Shown piece after piece: positions 13,531 through 62,425 of a stretch of DNA of 64,000 bases. Origin of the DNA: Antedon mediterranea (taxonomy: Eukaryota; Animalia; Echinodermata); assembly GCF_964355755.1 (NCBI RefSeq), contig NC_092672.1, forward strand, positions 29,580,437-29,644,436. Reading direction: 5' to 3'. The position numbers and the translations under genes are program-made. The first letter of the stretch is position 1. Every line of letters starts with the position of its first letter. Below the pieces are notes generated by a model. It saw only the letters and a program-made list of their open reading frames with translations. It ran no database searches and was not told where the DNA came from.

Positions 13531-15018
13531 AGAATACAACTCGACACCTGTATGTGAGCAATGGTATGACATAGAATACAACTCGACACCTGTATGTGAA
13601 CAATGGTTTAACATAGAATACAACTCGACACCTGTATGTGAGCAATGGTATGACATAGAATACAACTCGACACCTGTATGTGAGCAATGGTATGACATAA
13701 AATACAACTTGACACCTGTATGTAAACAATGGTATGACATAGAATACAACTCAACACCTGTATGTGAGCAATGGTATAACATAGAATACAACTCGACACC
13801 TGTATGTGAGCAATGGTATAACATAGAATACAACTCGACACCTGTATGTGAGCAATGGTATGACATAGAATACAACTCGACACCTATATGTGAGCAATGG
13901 TATAACATAAAATACAACTCGACACCTGTATGTGAGCAATGGTATAACATAGAATACAACTCGACACCTGTATGTGAGCAATGGTATGACATAGAATACA
14001 ACTCGACACCTATATGTGAGCAATGGTATGACATAGAATACAACTCGACACCTGTATGTGAGCAATGGTATAACATAAAATACAACTCGACACCTGTATA
14101 TGAGCAATGGTATGACATAGAATACAACTCGACACCTGTATGTGAGCAATGGTATGACATAAAATACAACTTGACACCTGTATGTAAACAATGGTATGAC
14201 ATAGAATACAACTCGACCCCTGTATGTGAGCAATGGTATAACATAGAATACAACTCGACACCTGTATGTGAGCAATGGTATAACATAGAATACAACTCGA
14301 CACATGTATGTGAGCAATGGTATAACATAGAATACAACTCGACACCTGTATGTGAGCAATGGTATGACATAAAATACAACTTGACACCTGTATGTGAGCA
14401 ATGGTATAACATAGAACACAACTCGACACCTATATGTGAGCAATGGTATAACATAGAATACAACTCGACACCTGTATGTGAGCAATTGTATGACATAAAT
14501 TACAACTCGACACCTGTATGTGAACAATGGTATGACATAGAATACAACTCGAAACCTGTATGTGAGCAATGGTATGACATAGAATACAACTCGACACCTG
14601 TATGTGAGCAATGGTATAACATAGAATACAACTCGACACCTGTATGTGAGCAATGGTATAACATAAAATACAACTCGACACCTGTATGTGAGCAATGGTA
14701 TAACATAAAATACAACTCGACACCTGTATGTGAGCAATGGTATAACATAAAATACAACTCGAAACCTGTATGTGAGCAATGGTATAACATAGAATACAAC
14801 TCGACACCTGTATGTGAGCAATGGTATAACATAGAATACAACTCGACACCTGTATATGAGCAATGGTATGACATAGAATACAACTCGACACCTGTATGTG
14901 AGCAATGGTATAACATAAAATACAACTCGACACCTGTATATGAGCAATGGTATAACATAAAATACAACTCGACACCTGTATGTGAGCAATGCTATAACAT
15001 AGAATACAACTCGACACC
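13531..15018. repeat. 42-bp minisatellite, ~35 copies
   Basis: Unit catagaatacaactcgacacctgtatgtgagcaatggtatga/taa. It explains the repetitive ORFs seen in several frames. Confidence 0.97.
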
Positions 15019-17387: not shown

Positions 17388-17964
17388 TTTGCTGCTACCA
17401 TCTCGTCCAAGTCAGAGGTTATTAGCGGATATTATCCTGTCTCAAGATTGTTCAAGTCAAGTTTTGTTTCATGTATGTTTACAGTTGCTGCTACCATCTC
17501 GTCCAAGTCAGAGATTATTAGTGGATATTATCCTGTCTCAAGATTGTTCAAGTCAAGTTTAGTTCTATGTAAGTTTACAGTTGCTGCTACCATCTCGTCC
17601 AAGTCAGAGGTTATTAGTGGATATTATCCTGTCTCAAGATTGTTCAAGTCAAGTTTTGTTCTTTGTAAGTTTACAGTTGCTGCTACCATCTCGTCCAAGT
17701 CAGAGGTTATTAGTGGATATTATCCTGTCTCAAGATTGTTCAAGTCAAGTTTAGTTCTATGTAAGTTTACAGTTGCTGCTACCATCTCGTCCAAGTCAGA
17801 GGTTATTAGTGGATATTATCCTGTCTCAAGATTGTTCAAGTCAAGTTTAGTTCTATGTAAGTTTACAGTTGCTGTTACCCTCTCGTCCAAGTCAGAGGTT
17901 ATTAGTGGATATTATCCTGTCTCAAGATTGTTCAAGGCAAGTTTAGTTCTATGTAAGTTTACAG
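17388..17964. repeat. 96-bp tandem repeat, 6 copies
   Basis: Unit ttgctgctaccatctcgtccaagtcagaggttattagtggatattatcctgtctcaagattgttcaagtcaag...gtttacag; period 96 (17401 to 17497). Confidence 0.95.
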
Positions 17965-32070: not shown

Positions 32071-35000
32071 CCTAGGACTCAAGTAAGTCTACGCTACCCA
32101 GTCCGGCTACAATATGGTCTATTTTGTTTTATAGCTTTATTGATAGCTGGGTTCAAATCTGGGTTGGGACGGCTTTTTCTCATTCTAAAATAGATTTCCT
32201 TATCATAATAAAATAATATATGAATTTATTTGTAATATTGTAATGTATACATAATATTTGCCATTGCATTTATTACTATTAATTATGTATTATACGGTTA
32301 CCCCTTAATTATACTATAGTATAATTTCCTTGTTATATTTTACAATATTTTCTTCCTAATTCTACAATTTTGTCTTTCACAGCACAAATTTATCATACTG
32401 AATCATCACACACCAAGTCTCATAAATCTCTACTGTATTTGTCCAAGCTACTCCAGCTACATGGTATTGCCTTGAGGCTAAACTACACGGTATACTGGCA
32501 CTACCATCATTCCTGGCTCGTCAACCTGTACCACATAAGCACAGTTTCAGTTTGAGTTTATTTACCATTTCAATTTTTGAACATAAGAGATGAACAACTT
32601 ATATGGATGGATAACCGTAAGAGCGAAGCTCGTTTACCGGTCACCCGTTAGTACAGTGACATTACAGACAACATAAAGACAGGACAAAGGTGCAATACAT
32701 AACAGGACATGTGAACACTTGTGTTTGCAACCCCTTGGATAAAATAATATATTTATATAAAGGAGAAAGTTAGATATTATAATATTTCTTTTTGATCAAA
32801 CAATGATAATTTTTAAATTACTTCTTAAGAAGTCATACTACTGATTCAAAATAGTGACTTACACCCTGTGGTCAAGGCTTTATTTGCTCTTATGCTTATT
32901 TCCTCCAACATACAGAGTACATAGGACTTTTTTTATTCATAACTGTTGAATTGTTTCCCAATACATAGTACCTATTGGTATTATATCTAAAAATACAAAG
33001 GTGGCTAACACAGATAGTTCCATATATACAGTACTCTTTTATAGATAGATGTATCTCTCCAAACTGCTCCCAACTACCTAATCTAATAATAGTACTATTA
33101 GCATACTACTATACACTTTGTAGACAAGAAATAAGTTGTATACACCTACAGGACTTATGGTAGTACAGTCGATCGCCCTCTCACTGGCCCGGTCAACATA
33201 ATCTATACCTAGATTATTACAGTAATTAAAGTACATTATTACAGAGTTTTTTTTTTGTTGCAGAAATCAAAGTTATGTGTATAGAAAGCAGTACTCGTAT
33301 TAAAAACTAAGCAGGTTGCAGGTCTTGAATGCAAACTGGCAGGATATTTTGAATATTTTTTGTTGTTGAAATGATGGAATCCTAACTTCAATTTCCACGA
33401 ACTGGAGACGAAGACATATTATGACCCTTTTATTTAAATTTATTTGAATAGACCTCCATGTAAAGTCATTAAAGGCTACATGATTGTTTTATATTTTAAT
33501 ATGTGATAGTAGGAAATCATTGTGTATAATGAGGACTATGAATCTGATATTTACTTGCATTCTTATCTTTTTAAAATATTATTTATAATGCCGGTAATGA
33601 GTTTAAAAGTTAATTATATTGACTATTTTTGATAATCATCATGTCCTTATAAATTCATTTATACTTTTTTTTGTGTAATATAGTTCATATATTATGTATT
33701 AAATAAATTGGTAAGGCCCTATACTGTTATTATTTAAGGAAAGTTTATATACACTATTATTTTATGCCTACCAATATTAGTATTAATTGTTTATGTAAAT
33801 ATTTTGTCTAATTCCCTTGATTTTTGTATAGGCCAATGGCATCAATGTTTTTCTCAAAGCAAATTAGCCTAATAATGCCACATTTAGACACATGATTCAT
33901 TGATTTCTGATATTCTGTACTTGTGTATGCATTACTAAAATAGTAGTTAATATATTTCATTTATAATGTATGTATAAACATATATTCATATTTTTTTTTA
34001 ACATTTTTAAATTTAAAAATTATTACAATACCTATCTACCTTTCTGATATTGTTACTATTATATAATATTTTTTGAGGCAGCAATAAAAAAAAATTAAAA
34101 AATTTATTTGACTTATACTGTACTATGTTAGTTCAGGAGATGAAGTGTGTGTGGGCAGAAACTAGTGTGAGGTGTATAGTTGTCACTTTAAGACCTAAAT
34201 TAGATGTTTTCTGAAGAAAAGAAGTAAGCGGATACGCTTTCAAACAACTCCAAGAAGATTCACACCAAAATAATTACTTTCCAATAAAATAGTATAACAG
34301 TGTATATTACAGTACATTGAATAAACTCGAGCGGAATAATAACGCAAATAAAAAACATTCATTTTCTTGTCGAAAAGTGCCCTCTCTAGTTTTCTATTAA
34401 TTTATTAATAATTATTATCAATTAATGAGTAATATAAACATATTTTTAAAATTTAATGCTGGAAACTGTATCTACTCCTAACAAAGTTTCATATCTCCAA
34501 ATTTCATCAACGTATTCAAAGCACTTAAATAAATTACATTTAACATTACAAATTCAGGTTTTGGATATAATTTTGCTTAAAAACATATACAAAAAACATC
34601 GATAAAAAATACTTTTCGTATTCAAAAACATTTGATATTTGGTATAAATGTTCAATATAGGTTGCTCCATCCATATTGCAAACAAAAAATAACTATCAAG
34701 CCATATCACTGATTTTTTAAATTTACGTTTTTACAAAATGTACACTTATGAAAGACCATACAATTCCAACTCATTTTTTACAAGCTAATAACTATTTTGA
34801 AAAAACGACCAACAAAAAACGTTCTTGAATGCAATTTTTTTCTGTGAATAGAGCAACCTATAGTGAACATTTGTACCAAGTATCAAATGTTTTTGAATAC
34901 GAAAAGTATTTTTTATCGATGTTTTTTGTATATGTTTTTAAGCAAAATTCTATCCAAAACCCGAATTTTTATGTTAAATGTGATATTTAATATTGAAGTG

Positions 35001-37999
35001 CTTTGAATACGTTGATGAAATTTGGAGATATGAAACTTTGTTAGGAGTAGAACCAGCTTCCAGCATTGAATTTTAAAAATATGTTCATATTACTCATTAA
35101 TTAATAATAATTATTAATAAATTAATAGAAAACTAGAGAGGGCACTTTTCGAAAAGAAAATGAATATTTTTTTATGTGCGTTATTATTCCGCTCGAGTTT
35201 ATTCAATGTACTGTAATATACACTGTTATACTACTTTATTGGAAAGTAATTATTTTTGTGTGAATCTTCTTGGAGTTGTTTGAAAGCGTATGCGCTTACT
35301 TCTTTTCTTCAGAAAACATCTAATTTAGGTCTTAAAGTGACAACTATACACCTCACACCACCAACCTCCAACACACTAGTTTCTGCCCACACACACTTCA
35401 TCTCCTGAACTAACATAGTACAGTATAACTCAAATTAATTGTTCTAATTTTTTTTTTATTGCTGCCTCAAAGAATATTATATAATAGTAACAATATCAGA
35501 AAGGTAGATAGGTATTGTAATAATTTTTAAATTTAAAAATGTTTAAAAAAATATGAATATATGTTTATACATACATTATAAATGAAATATATTAACTACT
35601 ATTTTAGTAATGCATACACAAGTACAGAATATAAGAAATCAATGAATCATGTGTCTAAATGTGGCATTATTAGGCTAATTTGCTTTGAGAAAAACATTGA
35701 TGCCATTGGCCAATACAAAAAATCAAGGCAATTAGACAAAATATTTACATAAACAATAAATACTAATATTGGTAGGCATAAAATAATAGTGTATATAAAC
35801 TTTCCTTAAATAGTAACAGTATAGGGCCTTACCAATTTACTTAATACATAATATATGAACTATATTACACAAAAGAAATATAAATGAATTTATAAGGACA
35901 TGATGATTATCAAAAATAGTCAATAATTAAATTTTAAACTCATTACCGGCATTATAAATAATAATTTAAAAAGATGAGAATGCAAGTAAATATCAGATTC
36001 ACAGTCCTCATTATACACAATGATTTTCTACTATCACATATTAAAATATAAAACAATCATGTAGCCTTTAATGAGTTTACATGGAGGTCTATTCAAATAA
36101 ATTTAAATAAAAGGGTTCGTGAAAATTGAAGTTAGGATTCCATCATTTCAACAACAAAAATATTCAAAATATCCTGCCAGTTTGCGTTCAAGACCTGCAA
36201 CCTGCTTAGTTTTTAATACGAGTACTGCTTTCTATACACATAACTTTGATTTCTGCAAAAAAAAAAAAAACTCTGTAATAATGTACTTTAATTACTGTAA
36301 TAATCTAGGTATAGATTATGTTGACCGGGCCAGTGAGAGGGCGATCGACTGTACTACCATAAGTCCTCTAGTGTATACAACTTATTTCTTGTCTACAAAG
36401 TGTATAGTAGTATGCTAATAGTACTATTATTAGATTAGGTAGTTGGGAGTAGTTTGGAGAGATACATTTATTTATAAAAGAGTACTGTATATATGGAACT
36501 ATCTGTGTTAGCCGCCTTTGTATTTTTAGATATAATACCCATAGGTACTATGAATTTGGAAACAATTCAACAGTTATGAATAAAAAAAGTCCTATGTACT
36601 CTGCATGTTGGAGGAAATAAGCATAAGAGCAAAGAAAGCGTTGACCACAGGGTGTAAGTCACTATTTTGAATCAGTAGTATGACTTCTTAAGAAGTAATT
36701 TAAAAATTATCATTGTATGATCAAAAAGAAATATTATAATATCTAACTTTCTCCATTATATAAATATATTATTTTATCCAAGGGGTTGCAAACACAAGTG
36801 TTCACATGTCCTGTTATGTATTGCACCTTTGTCCTGTCTTTATGTTGTCTGTAATGTCACTGCACTAACGGGTGACCGGTAAACGAGCTTCGCTCTTACG
36901 GTTATCCATCCATATAAGTTGTTCATCTCTTATGTTCAGAAATTGAAATGGTAAATAAACTCAAACTGAAACTGTGCTTATGTGGTACAGGTTGACGAGC
37001 CAGGAATGATGGTAGTGCCAGTATACCGTGTAGTTTAGCCTCAAGGCAATACCATGTAGCTGGAGTAGCTTGGACAAATACAGTAGAGATTTATGAGACT
37101 TGGTGTGTGATGATTCAGTATGATAAATTTGTGCTGTGAAAGACAAAATTGTAGAATTAGGAAGGAAATATTGTAAAATATAACAAGGAAATTATACTAT
37201 AGTATAATTAAGGGGTAACCGTATAATACATAATTAATAGTAATTACTAATAAAGGCAATGGCAATTACTTTATTATGTATACATTACAATATTACAAAT
37301 AAATTCATATATTATTTTATTATGATAAGGAAATCTATTTTAGAATGAGAAAAAACCGTCCCAACCCAGATTTGAACCCAGCTATCAATAAAGCTATAAA
37401 ACAAAATAGACCATATTGTAGCCGGACTGGGTAGCGTAGACTTACTTGAGTCCTAGGCATAGTACGATTAGCTAGAAGGATACAGGTCAACCCGTACCCA
37501 TGCCATGCCAACACGCTCGTACCCAAATTTTGGTTTACATATATCCAAAATTTTGGCTTACTCGTACCCATCATGGGCTGCCTAGTAGTAGTAGTAGTAG
37601 TAGCCTAACCTAAGGCAGCAGGCCCGGCCCTAGCCTACTACAACTTAAGTCTAGGCCTAGCCTAGTACTAGTAGGCCTCTAGGCCTAGCCTAGGCCCTAG
37701 TAGTTAACATCATACATACGCCCTAGAGCCTAGTAGTAGCTACCTACTACTCACTCTAGCTAGGCCTAGGTAGTAGCAGTAGTAGTTATTGTAGTAGTAT
37801 TATTGTATTGTAGTATTAGTTGTAGCTGTCCGGTGATCCTAGGCTAGGCCTAGTACGTAGTTATTCTTCAACAGTCACACAATTCAGATTCTGCCGGCCG
37901 CTGATTGCTAGTGAACAGGGGGAGGGAGAGAAAGAGTTAGAAGAACTGAAATAAGCCGTGACGTATAATAAACATCATACAAAATAATAATATAACTAA

Positions 38000-41617: not shown

Positions 41618-42342
41618 TAACGAATCCGTATAATATAATAATGTTGTATGTTATAAAGTAAAGTAAATGCGTTTAATATAATACAATTATATTATAATAT
41701 AATGTATTTTATTAATAATATAATATTAAATGTTCATAATATAATGCTAAAACCAAATAATATAATACAAAAAGTCAATAATTTGTTACATTTTTCACAT
41801 AATATATTAGAAATAGATATAATATAATGCTAAAACCAAGTAATATAATGCAAAACGTATAATTCATTACAATACAATATATAATATAATAAAAAAATGA
41901 TATAATAATATAATATTTTGAATACTTCAGACAGCTGAGGCTTGCCATAGTGGGCGGTAAATATTTATATATTATATATTAAGTGTAGTCTTTCTATGTC
42001 TCCATGCAGCAGTTAAGTATTGTTTACAGTGATAGTCTACAATTTCACCGATTCTCTCAAATGGAAATTCTAAATAAAGGTCATCAAGTAAAATATGATG
42101 TTGGTATTCGATTGTACCACTTCTAAAATTCTCCCAGAATGTATCATAACCACAATACAATAAATCCATTTTTAGTAAGTTAAAATGTGTTTCTCTTACA
42201 TTTTTAAGGTTTGAACATTCAAGTAGAAAATGGTCTGTAGTTTCAATTAACTGATTGTTGCATAGCTTGCAAAAACCAGTCTCATTTTCTGACCATGTAT
42301 TTTTTCTACCTTCTAAATCAAGAGAGTTAGACCTCGCTTTAA

Positions 42343-45300
42343 AGGGGGGTTCCGGGTTTAAAATGAATAGTAAAAAATGTAAAATATATTTGTTTGTCTC
42401 TTGAACGGTAAAAGTTTCAATTTATATAAGCGCCCAGTGAAGCAGAACGAAGGCTGTGAAATCAGGCCAGATTACAAGTGCAGCTACGGCAAAATCACAC
42501 TGTGGTTACAAAATAGGAAATTCGTGAAATGGTCCATCTTCCGACGACTCGTTATCATAAACCATATAAATTACTTTTGTAAAATTATACTTATCTGATG
42601 TAATTTTAGTCGGTCTTCCCATTTATAAAGTCAATTTTTTATGAAAATTCATCAAAACAGTGAAAAATTAGATATGTTTGCACTTTACGTTTGCCGATTT
42701 TCGCACCGACTTAGGGAAAAATCAAAATCAATGAAGCGTAACGTATACTGTACATTCCTGCTGAGGATCGAGCGAGACGAAAATACACGTGCTCTCTCTG
42801 CTGCCCATGCCTGGCATCGTCACGTGATAAGCAGATACAACAATACCAAACTGGTCGGGTCGAGTATACCCCGTCTATAATCACAACATGAACGATGTAC
42901 AGTATTTGATTGAAGGTCGACTTGACCTACCGGAATGGTATAGATAATATAGCTCGAATGAGAGAGTTGGAATATTTGTGTAGTGCAGCCTATAGTAAAA
43001 GGCCTGGTAGTATCAATTCGCATAGGGTCTACTACACTAGCTAGCTCAATTTTTAACTGGGCCGGATCGGCTAGGTCTCCTTCCTACTACCTGGTCTACT
43101 TGCTTGATGCATGAGTATCCGCTTTTTTGGAGAGTAAACTAAGCCTATTTTATTTTAGGCCTACTTAGACGATCGGGACACCATACGTGTGCAGAGGTCC
43201 CAACTTGGGAAAGTCCATTCGCAGGAGATTTTGTCGTGAACCACATTCAATTCGTCGGGGCGTCGAAAGTCAACGCGCGGGGAATCGAAAATCAACACGC
43301 GTGTCGTTTACGTCTCCTAATTAACTAAATATGTTACATATACAGTATATACAATATTTACACATAAGTTGGTTTAATTTTTACATAGGTTTATCCATCA
43401 TTATTTTTACATTCTTATTTTTTTTATGGACACATCCTCAGTACAAAGAATTTAAAAAATATATACTGTATTTTAACTAAAATTCAGTATATAAAATAAT
43501 TTAACTTAATTACATAATGTACAATATTTACACGTGATAGTATTGCCCAATAGAATTTACTCATTATTTTTAGGCACAGGCCTAGGCCTAGCATATAGGG
43601 CTTCTACTAGGCCCTAGCTAGCTACCATTTTAAAACCCCAAAACAATCGAAATAAACTATTCCGAATCCGTCTTATGCTACATTACGCGAGTTAACATAT
43701 TATTTCATATGAAAAACATTGAGTTTTATATTGTTTTATCCATACGTAATTACACTGGCATTAAAGATATAACATTAAAATGTAGGCCGTTTATGAGCTA
43801 TTTCGCCGATTTCTTATCGCTGGGAAATTCCCCACCATCGACATCGATCGATCGAGGAGTAGGCCTAGGCTAGAATAGAATAAAAATAGAGGCCTAGCGT
43901 GCATGCCGAAACGGGTGGATTATTGCTATATAAATAACAAGTTTGAACAAAAGAGCTTACGACAATCTTAGGTACAGTTTTATTAAGCGTAGGCCTACTT
44001 GCTTGGCGAATCCATATGCCTTTTAAATCATTTTAACATGTTCGTATTATCGGATCGTACAGTAAAACCACCTCCATGGTAAAACCAAATAAAACACCGC
44101 CTCAACAACCTCGTGCGATGTGCGATCTGTTGTTCTTTGCAGCGGATCAACATATTGGTAGAGTCCATTAATTATGAGGGTGTTAAAAATGTAATAACTA
44201 TTAAAAACGTGTCTCAACCACTGTATAATCAAAGCGTTTATTTAGTTAAAACCTGGATCCTCCCAAAATGGATAATCGCGTATTCCGGTTACCACGTGAT
44301 TGATTCACGGTTGGTTGCACGCTTCTTTTTTTTTCTACGTCCGGCGTGTAGTACCATAGAGATATTATAATATCTCTATGGTAGTACCGTGCATGTTTAT
44401 ATTATTGTTACGGTTTAACAAAGGCAGTGCATACAAATAAAAATACAAGAATAGACCACGGAGACTGCATGAATAGACATTTGTTTCAACATCCTGCCTC
44501 ACTTTTGTATTGACTATTGTTGACCTGGGCTGAGCCTGGGTGTAACCGTAAATCAATTTGGCCAAAAATATGGGGAAATTTGAAAATGCGGTAGAAAACG
44601 TTGAGATAGCGGTAGCGCGGTAGATGGGTACTAAAAGCGGTAGACTACCGCGAGTAGCGGTAGACTTGGGACCCCTGCGTGTGGACGGCGATCGGACCTT
44701 GTTTTGCTTCAATATTTACAGCCGATTTTGTAGAACGTTTTAGGTTTAGATTGTTTAGGAGTTTGGTTGATAGGATGGGTTTTGTTATTTATGGGCCAAT
44801 CGTCTAGTAGTAGGCTAGCTAGGCCCATGGGCCCCATTGTTTTAACGTAGCCATCGTGGCATGGAATCCCTAGTCAGAATGGCTCTCGCCCATATTATTA
44901 GGCTAGGCCTAGAGTAGTATTGTACGTGAAGCCGATAATACGATCTGTACTATAGAGGTATAAAAATACTGTAGTATAATTTATGACTCCGTATCTGTAC
45001 TAAATTTTGTATTTCATTAAAAGTCAAATAAATATATGCTACTACTGTTATTATTACACTTTAGGCCTAGCTTAGAAAATCTACAAAAAATGTATTTCAC
45101 AATGATCGGGTGGTCGTCGTTTGACAGGGGAGAGAGATGTAAATTAGTTGACAAACACAACGTACATGACGTCGCGAGTTTGGAATCCACTGGTGACGTG
45201 ATTTTGTGAATATCTCATGAATATTAATGAGCTTCCCTAAGCTGCTGAAAAACAGACTTTCCATGAATTTACCCTAAAATGTATATGAAATTTAATTTTT

Positions 45301-47954: not shown

Positions 47955-50900
47955 ATGGCAGAGTCTGAAACTAATCCAGAGTTCTCCAAATTGAAGTCTG
48001 ATCTCAGTAGACACTTTGAAGGTGAAAGGTTGCTTTGGCTGAAGTTCATCCTATTTGAGTTCTTACATGTAGGAGACCTTGAGAAGTCTACTGGAAATGA
48101 TTTATTTAATGGTTTAGATGATACTGGTAATATTACACCTAATAATGTTGATCTTTTATTTGAGATTACCAAATTATCTAAATTAAAGAAAGCAGAAGAT
48201 CTTGTACTCCAGTATATTAAAGATAATAATGCTGAAAATACAGAAGAAGAAAAGATATCATCACGTCGACAATTCATGTTTAACAAGTTGCGAAATGTTG
48301 ATCAAGATGCGTTGAAGAGGGTTATTGCTCACTATGATCTGGCAAGGTATAACTACACCAACATTTGGGATGTAACATTCAGATTGGAATCTGGACAACC
48401 TTTACCGAAAGAACCAGACAAGAAAGATGTATTTGATGGTCTTCTTCGACAAATTGTGCATCATACTAATGTACCACACCGCAGTGGAAGTCACAAAGGT
48501 ATGAAACATGTGATATTTAGTATTTGTATTATTACTTTATAAATTATAATCTTCAAACCAAGGAGTGCCCCACCTAACCTAACCGGAGGTGCTGACCGGT
48601 CATGGGCGACTAGTGTGTTTTTTTTGGGGGGGTTTTTTTTGTACATAATTTTTGTTGAATGCTGTCTGGCATGTATGTACCGTATATTTATGCATTTAAA
48701 TGGTTACCAAACTGACAAGCACTCGCTTCTTTTGGTATAGGCCTACTATTTGTTAATAGTTAACTATTAAAACGTATTTTAGCATTGAAATTTGTATTTA
48801 TGTATTTCTATATGAATATTTATTTATATACTCTATTCATTATAGCGTCTGTTAAACAATTCCTTTAAATTTCATTTACAAGGCCAAATCCAGACAAGCG
48901 AAAGCTTTTTATTTGGTCTTTTTGTCAATAAGTTAATAAATCTAATTATTCTTAATTTAGTTTTACATGTTAACAATAAAGAGATATGTGGCCCTCTATG
49001 GAATAGTATACAAATAATGAATGTTTATGAGTGCAATGGTACAAATAATGGCACGAGGTGAATGATGAAAGGTTATATCAACGAGGCAAAGCCGAGTTGA
49101 AATATAACCTTTCATCATTCACCAAGTGCCATTATTTGTACCATTACACGAATACAAAACATTCATTATTTGTTTTATATAACATCTAGACGTTTTTTTT
49201 TCGTCCACAAAAATGTTTCAAAAAGTACTATTTAACGATCGTTGAATAGTGCGTACTATTGCACGCCATGTGACCCACATTCGTCCAATCAAATGACAGG
49301 AATTTATATAGGTGTTATATAATATTGACTAGGGTCCTAACTGATCCTATAGAATCCTATATGATATTTTTACCAGAGATAAGAGACTTGTATTTTATTA
49401 TCACAACGTATTACAAATTAAAATAGTTTAATTCATTCCGATTTCCGCCTATTAAATCCTAACCGATCCGATTTTTTTTAGGGTTAACCTAAAATATTTC
49501 CGTAGAGCTGTATAATTATTAAAACGTATTAAATTCATATTGTTGTAAACTCAAAAGAAACACTGATATAACGTTGTAATTTCACTCTAATTTTTTCCTC
49601 TCTACTCTCATTACAATTTCAACTTGATGTATTTTTTTCTGTACAGATTTTCCTGCAACACCTCAAGATGAAAACCATAGTATGTAAACTTCTTTTAACC
49701 CCTTTATATGGAGCAGGGGTCGTGAAACACATGGCCAGTCTCTGTGGTTCTTTTTGGGCCAGCCTGTGGTCCGAGGGCGCTAGACATTCAGCCAGCCTGT
49801 GGTTCCGAGGGGGCGCTAAGAAACACACGGCCACAGAGCCATATATAGAGAGAGTTACGACTTCGAATGGATTAGAAGCCGTGTTTGTGTCCAACTATTC
49901 CTATGTAGCGTATGGAGTTGAGTCTTTTGTTTTGAAAATGTATAACGTTCAAAAGGCTTTAATTATCGAATTTAATATCAAAACAATCAATTTGTTTAAA
50001 GGTTTTTGTTAAAATAATAAACAAATTATAAAGTTACTGCGAACATGATTTTAAACAACAAAAATAGCAATTTCGGAATGGTTCTGGTTGTGCGCTCCAT
50101 GCACGCTCTACGCGTGCGCGTTTAGTTTGTACAGCGATTCTCTATAGTAATGCATTGTTTTTACATTTTGTTGTTTAAAATCATGTTCGCAGTAACTTTA
50201 TGATTTCGTTATTATCTTAACAAAATCTTTAAACAAATTGATTGTTTTTTTTTATATTAAATTCGATATTTAAAGCCTTGTGAATGTTATACATTTTTTA
50301 AGCAAATGACTCGACTCCATACGCTACATAGGCACAGTTGGACACAAACATGGCCGGCGTGCACACCACGTGACTTTCTAAAATCCGTGAACGACGCAAT
50401 GCCGTAACTCTCTCTATATATGGCTCTGCACGGCCAGCCTTCGGCCCAAGGACGCTAGACATTCGGCCAGCCCGATGGCGCTAGCATGAAACACACGGGT
50501 AGTCTGTGGTCCAAGGGCACTAAACTCTCGGGACCGTACAAACACTACTTCTTCGCATGCAACTAAAGTAAAATGACGTCACGTTAAAGCGTGTCGTCAC
50601 AGAGTCTCATGCATATGCAAAATGAATGTTTTGTCTCTGCTTGCGCATGTGCGCTCATGATTTTACAAAATGTTTTCAGAGTGATGATGATGGTGCGATC
50701 GGTGGTACAGAAAATAAAGTAATTCCGATATTGTTCCTGATAACAAAGAAGCAGATTAAATAATAATAGTTATTTTTTACCAATTTGGCTTAGATAGAAT
50801 CCTAGGCCAGAGAACTCACTATGTACACTAACCCAGCTTACTACTAGCTTATAACAAAGAATATATATCACAAGAATGAGTATTCCGCGATTTTTGCATG

Positions 50901-52834
50901 AGAAATTTGTAACAGAGGGCGGATGTATACATACTAAATAACACTTGATTTAATAGATATTATAGATGTCACATTAAATAGAATTATGATAATATATTTT
51001 GCAATTGTAAACTATTTTATAATACATATTTATTAACAAACTAGTGTACATTCACTTTCACAGACAATTATTTACTAACATGCTAAATTAGTTCACAAAA
51101 AAAGGCCTAACACCAAAAATCAACGAATCGTTACTCAGCACTGCCTATTCTTTACCATTGCCGCGTACTACTTTACGCCCGGTAAATTAAGTATTGTTTT
51201 TATGATATAAATTAGTATAAAATACATGTTATTAATAGGATAAAATGTTAAATTTATTAACATTTATTTGTTTTACCAGAAACAAGTTAAATATAGGAAT
51301 ATTATTAAACTATCCTTCGTGAAAACGCGTAAACACCAACACGCCCGGTCACGCTATCGTAGCGCCCGGTTGATAAAGCGAACTCTTTATACGGCAGTTT
51401 TTACTAAATAAATTGCATAAAATGAACAATTAAATATTCAAACAGCATTTAACATGATGTTGGCATGTAGTTGATAACATTTTTTATCATGAAAATACTA
51501 CTGGTGGTCCAGCCTTTGATTAGTGAAACGGTCACAAAAAGTTGTATACATCCCAGATACATCCTCACTTATGGCGGCGCCCTACCACATGGACCACCCT
51601 AGCTCTAGCTAGGTATGCACTGCGCTGCCGCCACTAAGCCTATTTCAGGTCTCATGTCTTGCAGCATCTAAAAATGCGTACTATAAATACATTATTATTA
51701 TTTTGTATTCGCACAGGAAGTATCTGGGCTTTCCTGTTAAAATTAAATATATTAGGCCTATTTATTATCCTCCGTGAAAAATAATATTTTGTTGTGAATA
51801 TGCCACGCTTACCGAAGGTGGCCTCTCACGGCGGAGGTTCAACTGATTTAGTAGGCATTATTATGAACAACTAGTAAAGTTTTTATATTTATAATTATCT
51901 GGATATAGGCTAGGTCTAGGCCTATGTGCTTTTCCACAGTTTAGGCAAGTGCTGAAGTTGGTTACTAGTTCTCTATTCAAATTTAATTAAAGGGACAGTC
52001 ACAAATATTTTAAACAGATTTCAATACGTAATTACTGTCTATTTGAGTTGTTATTGCATCAACATGTTTAGCCTTGACCTCCTCTACTTCTTCCGGTCAA
52101 AGTTCAATAACATTTTATGCATTTACGCCCTCTACGGCGAATAAGTAACTAGCTTTTACAAACGTTATAAGAGGGCGTAGATGCAAAAAAGCTCGCGGAA
52201 CTAGGGTGGCAAATGGTAAAGTAGGCCAAGGGTCATCAATTTATACCAAAATATGTTGAGAAAATTAAGTAGGTCAAGTGTTATAACGTTCGTAAAGCTA
52301 TTTACGTTTTCAGAAAGGGACAGAACACGTCAATGGCTCTCATCGACCTGACAAATAAAATTATAGACGCTTTCGAAAATCGCCATCTTGCAATCGGCAT
52401 TTTCATAGACCTTTCCAAGGCTTTTGATACTATTGACCACAGTATTCCTCTACACAAATTATCTCACTATGGAATCCGTGGATCAGCAATTAATCTCTTA
52501 AATAGTTACCTCTCCAATCGATCGTGCCCAATGTACCAAATACTCTCACTCCATATCCACTTTTAGTCCTATCACATGCGGCGTCCCTCAAGGATCTCTA
52601 CTTGGCCCCCTCTTATTTATTCTATACATCAATGATATTCACTTCTCTTCAAAGCTCCTAATTTTTTTCCTTTATGCTGACGACACTACAGTACTTTATT
52701 CTAACAAAAATGTCCAATCCTTATTTATTTTATTTTATTTTATTCAGTCAAAACCAACAGTGATAAATACCGCCACTAACAGGTTTGAAACATAAAACAA
52801 TACAACATCAAAAACGGTTAACAATAAAATACAG

Positions 52835-52891
<57 letters not shown>

Positions 52892-55800
52892 CATATATCG
52901 GCATGCCATAAACAATTTCAATTAATCAAACAGGTTATGCAGGCTGTTCAAGAAGTGAACACATAATCGTCCTCTTAAAATAACCAAGTCTATCATTAAA
53001 AAATATCGATATGATTGCTATTTAGATTATTAAATGTATAAGGTAGTCTATGAAAAAGTCCCCTCTTAGTACAGTCGACACGGCTAAAAGGAATATGCAA
53101 TAAATGTCTATTTCGTGTACGACCAGGAACATTTAAACTAAATAGTGAAATTAATGAACAGTCATATTTAGAATTTAAAATATTATATAGAAAAACCATA
53201 TCAGATATCGTTCGACGATTGCTGACAGAATCAATGGAAAAGGCAAAATTAACACAGTTAATTTAATACTTAATCAATACTGTCAACTCCAATTTGATCA
53301 ATTTGTCCCAATATTTTGCAGCTAATAAACTTTCTCTTAATCATAACAAATGTAGCTTCATCCTCTTTGGGACCCCACAACTATTAAAATCTATTGACTT
53401 ATCAGCCAACAAAATTACCATTGACAATTATGATATACCTTGTGTACAATCAGCTAAGTTTTTAGGTGTAGTTATGGACAGCAATCTAACGTGGAAAAAT
53501 GATATTAGGCCTAAAGAAGTAGAGAATAAAACTTCCAAAAGCGTTGGTATCATATCTAGGTTATCCTCATTTGTACCCCTTAATATTCTTCGAACCCTTT
53601 ACTGCTCCCTCATTCTTCCCTATTTGAGATACTGTAACATTGTCTGGGCCAATACTTACGTATCCAACCTCAGTAAACTGCAAATTATACAAAAGAAGGC
53701 TATCAGGATTATATCTGGCGCTCCACCGCGGTCCCATTCTTCCCAATTATTTTCAAAACTTAATCTCCTCAAACTCATTGATATAAACTTAATGCAACAA
53801 GGCAAATTTGTATTCTCCGCCCTGCATTCCACTTCTCCAAATCATTTAAACAATATGTTTATTCCGAATTTTTCTATTCACAATCCCTATACGTTCTAGA
53901 ACGGATATACACATACCTATCCACAATACCAATTATTTTCAAAACAGTATTAGATACTCCGGTCCATCAACGATAAACAGTTTACCACCCCCAGTTACAA
54001 ATGCTGTTTCAATTTTTTTATTTTTCAAAAAATTAAAACAACACAACAACTATTAAAAAGACAACAATCGAATGTCGCAAATTTGATTTATGCTCCGGAA
54101 CATTGATCTACTGTGATTTTTGAGTTTTATTTTCTGATTCTTCAATTTGATTGATCTATTTTTTTAAATTTATTTACTTATTCTTTTTATTTAATTTTTA
54201 TTTATTTATTTATTTTTTGTTTCCTTTTGTGTGCGTTTTTTTGTCTTGTTTGTTTCTCTTAATTTCCACTCTTATTCAATTATCCATTTTATTTACATAG
54301 GCATACCCAGCACATGATTTCCTCATCATGCCTTCCTCAATAGCCAATTTTCTTACTAATTCACATTTCTTTTGTCTATCCAACAATCATCTATTTCATT
54401 TTTAATATACCTTACCATTTCTGTTTATTATTTTGTATTGTTTTGCTATGGAGGAAAATAAATGTCTTTTGAAATGAAATGAAATTTACTTATTCGCCGT
54501 AGAGGGTGTAGATGCAAACAATTCCGCGGAACTAGTGTGGAAAATGTGAAAAGTATGTCAAGGGTCATCGATTCATACCAAAATAGTTTTGAGAAAATTA
54601 AATAGGTCAAGTGTTATAACGTTCGTAAAAAGCCAGTTATTAACTTATTCGGAGAGGCCGTAGATGCAAAACAGTTCGCGGAAGTAGGGTGGCAAATGGT
54701 AAAGTAGGCCAAGGGTTATCAATTCATACCAAAATATTTTGAAAAAATTAAGTAGGTAAGTGTTATAACGTTCGTAAAGCTAGTTACTTCACAGACATTC
54801 ATTATCATTCGGACCGTGCACAATAAAAGTTTGCTTTCAATATTTCAGCTAAAATAAAGTTATGTGAAAAAAGCTGGGGAAAAGTTATGTCTAGCAGCCT
54901 GGGACCACAGGCTTACCGACATGTCAAGCGCCCTCAGACCACAGGTTGGCCTTAAAATGAAACACAGAATGACCCTGTGTTTCATGACCTCTTTAGGTTA
55001 TTTGTACATATTCAGATGACATAGACCTTAAAATTGTGATACTTGTCAGCAAATGCCAGAGAGTTTTTATAATTTTGCAGTTTAGCCTAGGAACACAGGA
55101 ACCTTTTGTTTCGGCTACATTTGGATTTTATAGTTAAGGTTTTACACGTCTTTTTAAAAACAGAAACACTAATAACCTTTCCACTACAATGAATTTAGTT
55201 TCAGCAAAACAAAACTTCCATTCCATGATTTATTTTACTATTGTCTTCGTTCTCAAGGCAAAATCTTAATTTTAATTTCAATATACAGTAAGAAACAGAC
55301 GGGTGTATGTTTATGGCGTAAACACAATTAATGTGTTCCATCATCATTGTTGTCGTCGTCTTCATCATCATTTATTTTGCCATTTGTTGTGTCACCTATT
55401 TTATTTACCTTTCATTTTATCACAGAAAAGATAGAAGTATATCTACTAAGTAAACAAGAGGAATTTCTGAAAAATGCCAAGAAGTTTACACCAGCAACAT
55501 GGAATGAATCATACCAAGTCGATATTTCTGAACTATTCACAGAGTTGGAGCTACTCAGCAAAGAAAATACAAAAACCGAAAAGACTCAGTTAACGACATT
55601 ACAAGATGTGTTAGCTACCATCAAATCCATGCCTGCCTGCAAAGTCCTAATAGATGGTGAAGGTGGTATAGGTAAAACTACACTATTAAGGCACATTGCA
55701 TACAAGGCAGGTACAGATAAATCATTTGATGTGTTTGAAGGTAAAATTGTCTTTCTATTAAAAGTAAGAGATTTAGAGAAAGGGAAGGGAATCTTAGACC

Positions 55801-58800
55801 TTATAGTAGATCAACTCATCATGGAAGAATTTGATTTGGAAACAGATCTTGGAGAAGATTCAAAAGTGATAAAAAAATTCATATTAAAACATAATGATAA
55901 AATTGTGTTGTTGTTAGATGGATTTGATGAATTAAGATTTCAGAATAAAAATTTTATTCGTCTATTCAGACGGGAAACATTAAAGAATAGTGTAGTGATA
56001 ATGACCTCGCGAACAGAAAACATAAGTGCATTCATTAATGAGTGTAATGTACACGTGAGAGTAAAAGGATTCACGCAAAGAAACATTAAAACGTATATTT
56101 ACAAGCATTTTAAGCATTTTGGCAAACCTGACCTGGGAGAATCACTCATTAATGAGCTCTATGAACATCGAAAACATCAAGAAATATGCGATATGTCCAA
56201 AAATCCAATGTTACTTGTCACAATTTGTATAATGTGGGAGGACAACCAAAATCTTCCTCTCAATAAATCTGATCTTTTTAAAGAACTGTTTCGAAGTATT
56301 TTAAATCAGTTCATTAAAAAACAACAACACAATTTTATTTCAACATTTGATGATGCTCCAGAGGAGTATGTAAATGCTATGATTTGTTTAGGAAAATGCA
56401 TGTATCGTAACTTAAAAAGAAATCAACTTTCGATAAACAAGAAAACCCTTACAGGTGAAAAAAATACGATTGATATTGCCCTGAAACTTGGGTTTGTTTA
56501 TGAAGATGCACCAATTTCAAAGTCTAGCTTTGAAGAGAATTATATGCCTCCACACAAATTGATAGTTGAGTCATTGGTGGGATTTTATTTATACAAACTA
56601 TGTGAGAGTGAATCTATGGAAAACCCATTACTTGCGCCATTAGATGAAAATGAATGGAAAGAAATACGAGAAAGTGAGTATTTCAAAATAACAAGAGAAT
56701 TTGCCATTGGGTTCCTTGGAGCTGATGCTGGAACATTCTTAAAGCATTGGATTACAAATGATTTGGCAGCATATCGATCTATTGATAATTACTTAGAATT
56801 GGTGAAACAACACCATATGGATAATGTTGAACAAACATTGCTTAATCACATATCGAATACAAATTTAGAAATAAAAGAACATTTGGAAGATATTTCAAAT
56901 ACATTAAGAATGTCCATTCAGCATGTAAGCAAAGATGAAAACGTTGATAAACATTTTATAAATATTCTGAGGGAATTTCATAAAATATCGTTGCCTAACA
57001 ATTTTCGGAGTTTTTTAAATACAATATCATATGATTCTAAAGGAAAGGTTCTTACACACATTCTATGTATTTTAACGTATGATCAGTGTAACCTTACATT
57101 TGACTTGCATGATTGTAATCTATCAGGTGATGTAATGAATGCTGTGAGTAGAGAGTGTTCTTATAATGGAGTTGAGTTGAGATTACATCACTTCAATATC
57201 AGTGGTAATAATCTTAGTGACATTGATGGTGCATTACTGTGTAATCTATTGAGTATGATGACTTGGCTGGATACACTTGACATGCATGATTGTAATCTAT
57301 CAGGTGATGTAATGAATGCTGTGAGTAGAGAGTGTTCTAATAAAGGAGTTGAGTTGACATTAAATCACTTCAATATCAGTGGTAATAATCTTAGTGACAT
57401 TGATGGTACATTACTGTGTAATCTATTGAGTATGATGACTTTGCTGCGTACACTTGACATGCATGATTGTAATCTATCAGGTGCTGTAATGAATGCTATG
57501 AGTAGAGAGTGTTCTGATAATGGAGTTCAATTGCCATTACATCACTTCAATATCAGTGGTAATAATCTTAGTGACATTGATAGTGCATTACTGTGTAATC
57601 TATTGAGTATGATGACTTGGCTGGATACACTTGACATGCATGATTGTAATCTATCAGGTGATGTAATGAATGTTGTGAGTAGAGAGTGTTCTTATAATGG
57701 AGTTGAGTTGAGTTTAAATCAATTCAATATCTGTGGTAATAATCTTAGTGACATTGATGGTGCATTACTGTGTAATCTATTGCGTATGATGACTGTGCTG
57801 AGTACACTTGACATGCATGATTGTAATCTACCAGGTGATGTATTGAATGCTGTGAGTAGAGAGTGTTTTTATAATGGAGTTGAGTTGAGTTTAAATCACT
57901 TCAATATCTGTGGTAATAATCTTAGTGACATTGATGGTACATCACTGTGTTATCTATTGCGTATGATGACTGTGCTGAGTACACTTGACATGCATGATTG
58001 TAATCTATCAGGTGATGTAATGAATGTTGTGAGTAGAGAGTGTTCTAATAAAGGAGTTGAGTTGAGATTAAATCACTTCGATATCAGTGGTAATAATCTT
58101 AGTGACATTGATGGTGCATTACTGTGTAATCTATTGAGTATGATGACTTGGCTGGATACACTTGACATGCATGATTGTAATCTATCAGGTGATGTAATGA
58201 ATGCTGTGAGTAGAGAGTGTTCTTATAATGGAGTTGAGTTGAGATTAAATCACTTCAATATCAGTGGTAATAATCTTAGTGACATTGATGGTACATCACT
58301 GTGTTATCTATTGCGTATGATGACTATGCTGAGTACACTTGAAATGCATGATTGTAGTCTATCAGGTGATGTAATGAATGCTGTGAGTAGAGAGTGTTCT
58401 TATAATGGAGTTCAGTTGCCATTAGATCGCTTCAATATCAGTGGTAATAATCTTAGTCACATTGATGGTGCATTACTGTATAATCTATTGAGTATGATGA
58501 TTTGGCTGGATAAACTTGACATGCATGATTGTAATCTATCAGGTGATGTAATGACTGCTGTGAGTAGAGAGTGTTCTTATAATGGAGTTGAGTTGACATT
58601 AGATCATTTCAATATCAGTGGTAATAATCTTAGTGACATTGATGGTGCATTACTGTGTAATCTATTGAGTATGATTACTGTGCTGAGCACACTTGACATG
58701 CATGATTGTAATCTATCAGGTGCTGTAATGAATGCTATGAGTAGAGAGTGTTTTTATAATGGATTTGAGTTGAGATTAGATCATTTCAATATCAGTGGTA

Positions 58801-60197
58801 ATAATCTTAGTGACATTGATGGTGCATTACTGTGTAATCTATTGAGTATGATGCCTTTGCTGGATACACTTGACATGCATGATTGTAATCTATCAGGTGA
58901 TGTAATGAATGCTATGAGTAGAGAGTGTTCTTATAATGGAGTTGAGTTGAGATTAGATCACTTCAGTATCAGTGGTAATAATCTTAGTGACATTGATGGT
59001 ATATCACTGTGTTATCTATTGAGTATGATGCCTTTGCATAGAATACTTGACATGCATGATTGTAATCTATCAGGTTCTGTAATGAATGCTATGAGTAGAG
59101 AGTGTTCTAATAAAGGAGTTAAGTTGCAATTATATCACTTCAATATCAGTGGTAATAATCTTAGTGACATTGATGGTATATCACTGTGTTATCTATTGAG
59201 TGTGGTGACTTGGCATAGTACACTTGACATGCATGATTGTAATCTATCAGGTGCTGTAATGAATGCTATGAGTAGAGAGTGTTCTAATAAAGGAGTTAAG
59301 TTGCAATTATATCACTTCAATATCAGTGGTAATAATCTTAGTGACATTGATGGTGCATTACTGTGTAATCTATTGAGTATGATGACTTTGCATAGTACAC
59401 TTGACATGCATGATTGTAATCTATCAGGTGCTGTAATGAATGCTATGAGTAGAGAGTGTTCTAATAAAGGAGTTAAGTTGCAATTACATCACTTCAATAT
59501 CAGTGGTAATAATCTTAGTGACATTGATGGTGCATTACTGTGTAATCTGTTGAATATAATGACTTTGCATAGTACACTTGACATGCATGATTGTAATCTA
59601 TCAGGTGCTGTAATGAATTCTATGAGTAGAGAGTGTTCTGATAATGGAGTTCAGTTGACATTAAAGCACTTCCATATCAGTGGTAATAATCTTAGTGACA
59701 TTGATGGTGCATCACTGTGTTATCTATTGAGTATGATGACTTGGCGTAGTACACTTGACTTGCATGATTGTAATCTATCAGGTACTGTAATGAATGCTAT
59801 GAGTAGAGAGTGTTCTGATAAAGGAGTTAAGTTGCAATTATATCACTTCAATATCAGTGGTAATAATCTTAGTGACATTGAGGGTACATCACTGTACTAT
59901 CTATTGCGTATGATGACTTTGGGGAGTACACTTGACATGTGTGATTGTAATCTATCAGGTGCTATAATGAATGCTATGATTAGAGAGTTTTCTGCTAAAA
60001 GAGTTAAGTTGTATTTACATAATGTCAATATCAGTGGTAATAATCTTAGTGGTATTGATGGTACTTTACTGCGTTCTTTATTAAATATGTTACCTCAACT
60101 AAAGTTGCTTAACATGCATGATTGCTATTTATCAGATGGGGTAATTAGTGAAATAATGAGAGACTGTTCAAATAGAGGAGTACATTTTTTGGCATAA
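47955..60197 (+). CDS. NLR immune receptor: tandem DED-like death folds - NACHT - LRR array (~1782 aa)
   Basis: Exons 47955-48498, 49647-49679 and 55426-60197, both introns phase 1 and AG/GT, total 5349 nt in frame. Walker A GEGGIGKTT, Walker B VLLLDGFDE, sensor IMTSR, NPMLLVTICIMW, winged-helix PHKLIVE. DED-like ITPNNVDLL...AEDLV in exon 1. Confidence 0.9.
48998..49322. mobile_element. Hairpin-type non-autonomous element (Crypton-like)
   Basis: ~75-bp inverted arms (about 49011-49175) centred on GAGGCAAAGCCGAG; no TSD seen. Confidence 0.5.
49834..50428. mobile_element. Palindromic MITE with 8-bp TSD (P or hAT type)
   Basis: CAGAGCCATATATAGAGAGAGTTACG...CGTAACTCTCTCTATATATGGCTCTG; TSD cacggcca at 49826-49833 and 50429-50436. 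Confidence 0.85.
52305..54484 (+). mobile_element. 5'-truncated CR1/L2-group LINE (degenerate RT)
   Basis: IGIFIDLSKAFDTIDH, GVPQGSLLGPLLFILYIND, YADD, KFLGV, YCNIVW; frameshifts; AATAAA plus (gaaat)n tail. Confidence 0.9.
52724..53268 (-). mobile_element. CR1/Jockey-group LINE 3' fragment nested in the previous LINE
   Basis: RRTISDMVFLYNILN...LNVPGRTR...FSRV...LFHRL...DIF, related to 13010-13530 and sharing the 3' UTR motif aaaccaacagtg...aacagg; internal (TA)n; (aataa)n tail. Confidence 0.8.
57102..60194 (+). repeat. Coding tandem array: 17 full plus one half 177-bp (59-aa) LRR doublets
   Basis: Period 177 (57102 to 57279). Each unit holds two LRRs: LxxFNISGNNL and LxTLDMHDCNL. Confidence 0.97.
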
Positions 60198-60209
60198 AGA
60201 CACACAATA

Positions 60210-62425
60210 TAACTGGTGAATATAAACGTTTCCGTAACAAACTTAACACATTGATTAGACAAGTTAAAACTGATCACTTTAACAACACCTTCTCACAGCA
60301 TAAAAATGATATCAAAGCAACTTGGAAAATTATCAATTCTTTATTGAATAAACCTAAGAATAATCCGCCCGACTTACAAATCGAATGTGATGGCGAATTA
60401 TCAAATGATCCAATTAAAATTACAAATTCTTTTAATCAGTTTTTTGGACAGATTGGACCTACCCTTGCAAGTCAAATACCATCACATGCAACAAATTATA
60501 AAGACTACTTACCGAACCCTACTCTCAATTCCCTATTTCTTATCCCTGTTGACGAAAATGAAATACTCAACACCGTCAAATATTTCAAGAATAATAAGGC
60601 TCCAGGTTTTGACGATATTAGTACTAATATAGTTAAGCAAACATGTAGCCTTATCTCTCACCCACTTTGCTATATTTTTAACCTGTCTATGTCTAAAGGA
60701 GTGTTTCCAAACAAATTAAAACCTGCAAAAGTAACCCCCATCTATAAATCTGGAGTCAAGTCTGATGTTAGCAATTATCGTCCCATCTCCATTCTGTCTA
60801 TTTTCTCCAAAATGTTTGAACGCATCATTTATGATCGGACATACAAATTTATTTTAAAACACAATATTCTTTCTGACCATCAATATGGCTTTCGAAAAGG
60901 ATATGATACTTCAATGGCTTTTTTACAACTTACTAATAGTATTGTGGATGCATTTGAAAAAAACCATTTTGCTATTGGAACATTCATTGATCTCTCAAAA
61001 GCTTTTGATACTATCAATCATAACATTCTCTTATCTAAACTTTTCATTTGTGGAATCCGTGGACCTGCACATGATCTACTTAAAAGTTATCTGTCAAATA
61101 GATTTCAATGTACTAAGTATAGCAATGTTACCTCTCATTTTACACCAATATCATGTGGAGTCCCCCAAGGTTCACTGCTTGGCCCACTTTATTTTCTTTA
61201 TATATAAATGACATTTGTTCATCCTCTAAATTATTTTCTTTCTGCCTCTATGCTGACGATACTACCCTCCTTTATACAAATCCAAATATTCAGTCACTTT
61301 TTGCGGTTGTCAACCAGGAACTGACTAAAGTGTGTGAATATTTCCGAGCAAACAAACTTTCCGTTAACGTTAAGAAATGCTGTTCTATTTTGTTTCGAAA
61401 CACTCGCAAACCTGTAAATCTTGATGATAGACATATTAAAATTAATGAACATATTGTTCCACTCGTTGAAAATACAAAATTTCTTGGTGTTACCATTGAT
61501 TCAGGTCTCACTTGGAAGCAACATATGAAAGAAATTGAAAATAAAATATCCAAAAATATTGGTATCATTTTTAGACTCTTCTTTTCTTCCCAAAAACATT
61601 CTTCATACCTTGTATTGTACTCTTATTTTACCATATTAAACTATTGCAATGTAGTTTGGTGCAACACGTATGAGTCCAACACTAGCAGATTATTTATCAA
61701 ACAGAAGAAAGTAGTTCGAATAATATCAGGTTCACCACCACTAGCTCACTCAGATCCCTTATTTCCCCCCCCCCCCTAAACCTTTTAATGTTGAAAGATC
61801 TTAACTATCATCAACAGTGTACTTTTCTCTACTCATCGATTAACTCCCTAAACCCACCTCAATTTACAAATTTATTCCAACCAAACGCATCTTTTCACAA
61901 TTATAGAACTCGAACTATACAGGATATGCATATCCGTCTTCATAAAAAAACTTCATTTCAATATAGCATAAGATTTAGTGGACCTAAACTATGGAATAAA
62001 CTACCTTCAAATATTAAAGTTGCTGTATCTAAGAAAAGCTTTTCATTTAAACTTAAAAGATATATCACATCCAAGTATTAATTTTTATTATATTACATTT
62101 TATGATAATAATTTTAATGATGAGTAACAAGAAGACGAATCAATTCTTAATTTATACCAAAATTGTTTTTTTAGTTATTTTACTTATTTAGTTTAACCCA
62201 TGTTATGTAAATTTTTATATTGTTATTTCTTTATTTTTTTTATTTATTTTTTATTTATTTTTTTTTCTTTTTCCGTGTTGTTTAAATCTAATCTTTGTTT
62301 AGGCATGTCTGTCACAAGCTTTTTGCTTTTTTTGAACATGCCTTCTTCAATCATATTACCTTTCTTTACACCATTTTGTAGACTGTTTTATTTTGAAGAA
62401 AATAAATGTTACTTTGAATTGAATG
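60210..62425 (+). mobile_element. 5'-truncated CR1/L2-group LINE with near-complete, frameshifted RT
   Basis: KAPGFDDI, NYRPISIL, QYGFRKG, FIDLSKAFD, GVPQGSLLGP, YADD, KFLGV, GPKLWNKLP; frameshifts near 61195, 61580 and 61770; T-rich UTR, AATAAA (~62401) and ttgaa tail. Confidence 0.93.

Follow-up and report, generated by a model that had tools for sequence, protein, structure and literature searches.

A 64,000-nucleotide stretch of the genome of the crinoid Antedon mediterranea (assembly GCF_964355755.1, contig NC_092672.1, forward-strand positions 29,580,437 to 29,644,436; hereafter the window, with positions counted from its first letter) carries what is likely an intact gene for an NLR (a receptor that joins a nucleotide-binding domain to leucine-rich repeats), a putative immune sensor whose leucine-rich repeats (LRRs) form a tandem array of 177-bp cassettes. 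We consider it probable that the cassettes of this crinoid NLR, each encoding two LRRs, are kept similar by exchange and diversified by selection, and that their variants are reassorted. An earlier note on the window, made from its letters alone, had proposed such a system; most of its claims stood, and several needed to be narrowed as described below. The predicted gene has the following parts:

47955 to 48498, + strand: predicted first coding exon, with a DED-like death-fold effector region (open reading frame; Pfam DED, E = 0.0057)
55426 to 60197, + strand: terminal coding exon of 4,772 nt, with the NACHT domain, helical domains and the entire LRR array up to the stop codon
55644 to 56117, + strand: NACHT NTPase domain (Pfam NACHT, E = 6e-22, above cut-off)
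57099 to 59930, + strand: homogenised core of 16 units of 177 bp (59 aa, two ribonuclease inhibitor (RI)-type LRRs each)
59931 to 60107, + strand: unit 17, the boundary unit, from comparison with the consensus
60108 to 60194, + strand: diverged terminal half unit, or cap (proportions of synonymous and non-synonymous differences, pS 0.31 and pN 0.27)

The first exon comprises 181 codons and closes on a phase-1 donor (AG/GTATGA) at 48498, and the terminal exon begins at a phase-1, pyrimidine-rich acceptor at 55426, TTTCATTTTATCACAG. Joined, the two exons stay in frame and give a predicted protein of 1,771 aa without internal stop, in the order DED-like, NACHT and LRR; this splice is a prediction, and small internal exons may lie between. 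The DED match of exon 1 is under the Pfam curated cut-off, and exon 1 returned only chance matches against the PDB. Across 156 aa it shares 43% identity with the N-terminal end of the Antedon NLR P0012, and an N-terminal DED match was found in all six homologues tested, above cut-off in one. The stop-free open reading frame at 55332-60197 contains the whole array as well as intact Walker A (GEGGIGKT, at ~55656) and Walker B (LLLDGFDE) motifs, and Pfam detects LRRs in it alongside NACHT. The gene's C-terminus resembles the natural ends of its paralogues. Both the NLR identity and the single-exon arrangement of the array, as first read from the letters, are thereby borne out.

Tandem Repeats Finder reported a period of 177 with 16.8 copies and 0% indels at 57095-60071. 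Cutting in register from 57099 gave 17 full 59-codon units and the diverged half unit, in agreement with the roughly 17.5 units counted previously. Near-identical, the term first used for these units, here stands for a mean identity among units 1-16, to which the unit statistics below refer, of 91% for DNA (range 85-98%) and 78% for protein. All 16 core units differ from each other, by at least four differences, and the patchwork motifs recur exactly where they had been placed: WLD in units 1, 3, 6 and 8, TSLxYLLR in 5, 7 and 16, KLQL in 12-14 and 16, and ICG in 4-5. Non-synonymous alleles occur at 35 of the 59 codons, with 31 of the 61 such alleles found once only; the shared multi-allelic changes concentrate at codons 11, 16, 22, 23, 26, 28, 30, 45-52 and 55-58. 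Codons 28 and 30 each carry five chemically unlike residues, the changes L46S and N49Y occur jointly in all six units concerned, and invariant stretches are present in every unit. The unit is present in numerous copies in public contigs under two organism labels, where codons 24-30 and 55-58 show the window's alleles and additional ones; these contigs are short pieces, and none of those listed spans the array.

Differences among the core units fell mostly on amino acids. Pairwise pN/pS was 3.1-4.3, depending on the assumed transition bias, and the bootstrap confidence interval of pN-pS excluded 0. With distinct alleles counted once, there were 7 synonymous and 61 non-synonymous changes; a codon-level tally gave 6 extra synonymous codons versus 60 extra amino acids. 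Fourteen mutation models, among them AT-biased ones and the spectrum seen in non-coding arrays nearby, predicted a synonymous share of 19-29%, compared to the 7/68 observed (P 0.0003-0.042). This deficit was confined to the coding frame and absent from the five other frames, and two non-coding arrays in the window showed none in any of six frames. Exclusion of units 1 and 16 left 6 synonymous and 56 non-synonymous alleles (P = 0.0096). Of the silent changes, those picked out by eye in the earlier note (at 58605, 58782, 58686 and 59547, and CAA/CAG) are present, but TAC at codon 48 of unit 16 had been missed. A codon model estimated omega at 3.44 (likelihood ratio test against omega = 1, P = 4.6e-4), in line with the suggestion that site variation exceeds the neutral expectation, and all three thirds of the unit had a best grid omega of at least 3 (P 0.015-0.067); these omegas are unit-wide and, being tree-based, open to recombination bias, whereas the counting tests are tree-free. 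Codons that vary among paralogues, a set chosen independently, had a non-synonymous rate 3.4-fold that of the least variable codons, and the codon variability profile is common to distant paralogues (Spearman 0.46, P = 0.0003). Diversifying selection thus likely retains the amino acid variants.

The end of the array behaves differently from its core. Homogeneity is lost in the terminal repeats, where silent sites diverge freely (Fisher P = 0.007). The first half of unit 17 differs from the consensus by 15 non-synonymous and 0 synonymous changes, and its second half has pS 0.40 above pN 0.25. With pS at or above pN in the second half of unit 17 and in the last half unit, silent sites can evidently drift after leaving the homogenised zone, which weakens constraint on synonymous sites as the cause of the low dS in the core. 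Hypermutation of the deaminase type was ruled out by the mutation spectrum (C>T, 18/68).

The units are mosaics. Among pairs of informative sites, 202 of 351 are incompatible; compatibility is greater between close sites than between remote ones (pairwise homoplasy index, PHI, P 0.0002-0.02 over nine settings), and the minimum number of recombination intervals (Rm) is 11. Two units five apart share an identical tract of 143 nt, and adjacent units are more similar (Mantel rho 0.28, P = 0.007). Simulated clonal evolution with fitted site-rate hotspots was rejected (P = 0.002), and the Sawyer sum statistic was significant (P = 0.017). The recombination among units that the earlier note had postulated is therefore supported by PHI, Rm and the rejected clonal null. 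From one allele, unequal crossing-over with breakpoints inside units is indistinguishable from gene conversion.

We used structure prediction to place the variable codons. A model of NACHT with units 1-10 (pLDDT 87) matched structures of NLRC4, NOD2 and NLRPs at E ~1e-25, and the LRR model's top structural match was ribonuclease inhibitor (Z 23.4, root-mean-square deviation 8.0, 450 aligned). The full-array model has pLDDT <50 for residues 1-420, and the units concerned were read from the NACHT and ten-unit model. As modelled, each unit forms two LRRs, both built of a strand and a helix; the strands fall at about codons 59-2 and 31-33, the helices at 10-22 and 44-52. This gene's most variable positions lie on the N-terminal side and at the first strand residue; heterozygosity is 0.15 at the concave centre and 0.74 at the edge. 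The edge-biased variation described before thus holds for this gene, but does not extend to its relatives: in 13 of the 14 paralogues that have at least five units, variability is highest in the exposed concave class of positions, and core and C-side positions stay fixed. Surface classes were assigned with DSSP and the scheme of PMC2747839, and positions adjacent to indels in units of 57-58 aa are possibly misaligned. On these models, the strand-edge bias is peculiar to this gene among 15 arrays.

Homologous arrays occur across a crinoid family. Of 60 homologue matches, 58 were proteins of Anneissia japonica or Antedon mediterranea, and the closest NACHT regions belong to Antedon proteins (62-64% identity). 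We compared 20 crinoid arrays of 4-19 units each, namely this gene and 19 others with units of 56-61 residues; the paralogue arrays are protein gene models, and comparisons with them are at the protein level. The number of units differs among paralogues. Psim, computed with our own implementation rather than T-REKS, was 0.85 for units 1-16 and at least 0.7 in 18 of the 20 arrays. Units were nearest to others of their own gene in 146 of 178 cases, and in a quick tree of ten arrays eight each formed one side of a branch; the tree arrays were chosen for many or well-clustered units, so the unselected 146/178 is the fairer figure. In these gene models, the family shows gene-specific clades of units. 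LRR-unit similarity follows NACHT similarity (rho 0.79, 153 gene pairs), so these pairs give no positive sign of exchange between paralogues at the protein level, and the 10 of 178 units that lie closer to another gene by 5 points or more mostly involve close paralogues or array ends. When three further Anneissia models were screened for internal repeats, P0061 and P0062 proved to carry an array, and none of ten more distant NACHT proteins, a small sample, had a homogenised LRR array. The longest case, Antedon mediterranea XP_071956244.1 (P0081), is a NACHT protein model of 3,951 aa on a 30.6-Mb contig, with at least 49 two-LRR units and 32 distinct sequences among the 46 units of commonest length. 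Its ~100 LRRs are more than twice the 43 given for human NOD4 in PMC2747839. We also observed a second crinoid NLR subfamily (P0019, P0034, P0045, P0046 and related proteins) with units of 112-127 residues, some neighbours among them 84-93% identical.

These results are best explained by a model in which misaligned germline recombination within the exon, by unequal crossing-over or gene conversion, would both homogenise and re-sort the cassettes, and selection would retain surface variants that recombination reassorts between cassettes. Each allele and each paralogue would then present its own string of LRR faces. We infer that this exchange is germline and ongoing, and that unit number changes between alleles. 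The putative ligand-binding surface would comprise the strand-entry loop and first strand residue (codons 26-30 and 55-58) together with some convex-helix sites, and the ligands may be variable non-self or modified self. NLRs are usually activated by oligomerisation of NACHT followed by signalling through the effector domain; here, binding might trigger NACHT oligomerisation and DED-mediated recruitment of caspases. Such a cassette design likely varies what the sensor detects.

Several observations count against this model. The selection test depends on seven synonymous alleles; its weakest mutation model gives P = 0.042, and the models without transition bias give P 0.02-0.04. Contig alleles absent from the window look neutral, with 3 of 14 synonymous (P = 0.63, from 40 of the 54 rows), although of these three silent alleles one may be an alignment artefact and one is also found in the terminal half unit. 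The lack of stop codons is not significant alone (P 0.08-0.23), and neither is the Sawyer longest-tract statistic (P = 0.34). Distinct alleles do not cluster significantly by codon (P = 0.19), so the claim that change is limited to hotspots stands for the shared multi-allelic changes but not for the 35 variable codons as a whole. Finally, the central concave positions of this gene, where LRRs usually bind, are the least variable of the 15 arrays (centre-to-edge ratio 0.20), and part of the variation sits on the convex helices (sites 11, 16, 22 and 45-52).

These points bear on two other explanations of the amino acid differences. Near-identical adjacent repeats are prone to misfold or swap domains, and selection could have favoured folding or shape, through variants and compensating pairs that disrupt identity or adjust curvature. 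The variable codons do lie away from the concave centre, some of them on convex helices, L46S and N49Y always travel together, and the best omega is above 1 in all three thirds of the unit; but variation peaks on the exposed concave face in 13/14 paralogues, with core and C-side fixed, and the five unlike residues at codons 28 and 30 are more than the breaking of identity requires. We consider this explanation unlikely. We give marginally less credence to a recent, near-neutral expansion of minisatellite type under relaxed constraint, with the shortage of silent changes due to chance or to constraint at the nucleotide level. The small number of synonymous events, the P values without transition bias, the neutral-like contig alleles and the non-significant clustering and stop-codon tests fit such an expansion, but the likelihood ratio test on omega, the neutral behaviour of the other frames and the non-coding controls, the free silent sites of the terminal repeats and the profile common to distant paralogues do not.

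Two further alternatives concern the array itself, and we regard both as extremely improbable. In one, the array would be rearranged somatically in coelomocytes, so that each cell obtained a different sensor, as in the variable lymphocyte receptors (VLRs) of agnathans. The invariant stretches in all units could serve as in-frame homology for template switching. However, an agnathan VLR is incomplete in the germline and is flanked by donor LRR cassettes, whereas the crinoid gene is complete in genomic DNA, and the 64-kb window holds no LRR cassettes outside the array except for composition-driven matches to a 42-bp satellite; moreover, the mutation spectrum is not dominated by deaminase changes, and germline exchange accounts for every observation. 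In the other, the array or the order of its units is an assembly artefact mixing alleles or paralogues. Public runs X1, X5 and X7 contain 223, 119 and 177 contig pieces at 90% or more on one unit, and no listed contig bridges the array; against this, the 16 distinct core units keep the frame without indels and show a positional gradient, the array has natural diverged ends, two other crinoid genomes have comparable arrays, and 26 of the 40 listed contig variants are already among the window's units. The exchange of cassettes in the germline under diversifying selection thus remains our preferred reading.

The gene is well supported as an animal form, with its LRRs in a single exon, of a diversification design already known. 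Among fungal NLRs whose repeats have high internal conservation (HIC), such as the Podospora HNWD, het-e and het-d WD40 genes and those with ANK or TPR repeats, NACHT is likewise joined to a repeat sensor with Psim of at least 0.7, a few hypervariable codons are under diversifying selection, and concerted evolution is attributed to unequal crossing-over (PMC13449251; PMC4986451). The Psim, non-synonymous excess and mosaicism found here bear out the analogy with HNWD/HET-E that the earlier note had drawn. The crinoid system differs in its LRR repeats, DED-like effector and animal host; fungal NLRs are described as being without LRRs (PMC4986451), and a 2026 survey reports that HIC NLRs occur in animals too (PMC13449251). 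In Podospora, allelic length polymorphism, balancing selection and exchange between genes have been demonstrated, whereas the crinoid gene is known from one allele.

The closest precedent, however, also includes plants, to which the fungal comparison had not extended. In the melon Vat/PmW cluster of coiled-coil NLRs (PMC8012345), near-perfect multi-LRR units (R65aa repeats) lie in one exon as here, unit number varies among homologues, recombination breakpoints are found, and part of the unit is enriched in non-synonymous change. These plant genes differ in having 1-7 units of 65 aa, compared to 17.5 here and at least 49 in the longest relative, in their known resistance phenotypes, and in placing the NB domain and LRR2 in separate exons where the crinoid gene keeps NACHT and array together. 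The tomato Cf-2/Cf-5 genes (Hcr2; PMC7468133) likewise have an LRR region repetitive at the DNA level, intragenic recombination and varying LRR number, but encode extracellular receptor-like proteins with 24-aa plant LRRs and no NTPase. Vertebrate NLRPs share the RI-type two-LRR module (57 aa), but each module is its own exon (PMC2747839); this and the zebrafish data (PMC4852459) agree with the earlier statement that vertebrate NLR LRRs are split among exons. Zebrafish NLR-B30.2 genes are alike in variable LRR number and gene conversion, but their LRRs are reportedly not particularly variable and diversity lies in B30.2 (PMC4852459), unlike in the crinoid gene. Anneissia japonica LOC117106077 and LOC117109028 and Antedon XP_071956244.1, known from automatic annotation only, belong to the same family and have units of 57-60 aa. 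The available part of an echinoderm genome paper counts NLRs, with no mention of such arrays found there (PMC8913654), and we found no description of crinoid NLR repeat arrays in the open literature, a scope that leaves aside most subscription journals and the supplement of PMC13449251, which possibly lists animal HIC-LRR NLRs, echinoderm ones among them.

The window contains two fragments of long interspersed nuclear element (LINE) type near the gene, 68% identical in DNA across 395 bp:

60176 to 62081, + strand: frameshifted fragment of a LINE-type reverse transcriptase that starts at the NLR stop codon, outside the gene (Pfam RVT_1, E = 6e-21 and 3e-08)
52273 to 53899, + strand: broken fragment of a LINE-type reverse transcriptase within the predicted intron (Pfam RVT_1)

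Truncation of the NLR by the downstream element was rejected, since the paralogues end at a similar place. An association with transposable elements is also reported for the HIC NLRs of Podospora.

Elsewhere in the window, two self-inverted (foldback) segments of ~5 kb (23325-28125 and 32071-37457; arms ~94% identical, 96% identical to each other) sit amid further nested inverted repeats at 21248-41949. Open reading frames of at least 85 aa in this region had no Pfam match except a weak zf-RVT at 41975-42421, and the segments may represent a foldback transposon or have arisen by breakage-fusion. A 42-bp array at 13526-15018 (35.5 copies) has an open frame of 561 codons on the + strand and 434 on the - strand; substitutions in it follow a neutral pattern in each of the six frames, and it is therefore likely a non-coding minisatellite. 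The tblastn matches of homologous LRRs to it (13.5-15 kb, 19-36% identity) were dismissed as composition artefacts, as were the Pfam matches of this array and of a 96-bp array at 17389-17965. The latter (6 copies) is neutral in all frames (10 alleles), and its unit, which has the splice-like motifs GTAAGT and TTTACAG, may represent a micro-exon plus intron that was duplicated.

Invertebrates, echinoderms among them, possess large families of NLRs, and for the most part neither their ligands nor the way they diversify has been established. Animal NLRs are commonly portrayed as sensors of fairly invariant patterns (PMC4986451). We lean towards the view that crinoids have dozens of NLR arrays, each in a single exon and with 2 to ~50 cassettes, that rearrange often enough to differ between individuals. 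In its boldest form, which we think highly doubtful, the arrays would rearrange to differ between coelomocytes of one animal. Such a repertoire, if real, would give a cytosolic sensor adaptive-like diversity by a route that needs neither introns nor a recombinase. Arrays of 35 to ~100 LRRs, and the shift of the variable surface between paralogues, are relevant to LRR structure and to the design of repeat proteins. For the crinoids themselves, shuffling of cassettes in the manner of plants and fungi, with omega above 1, would point to an arms race in which the ligands vary.

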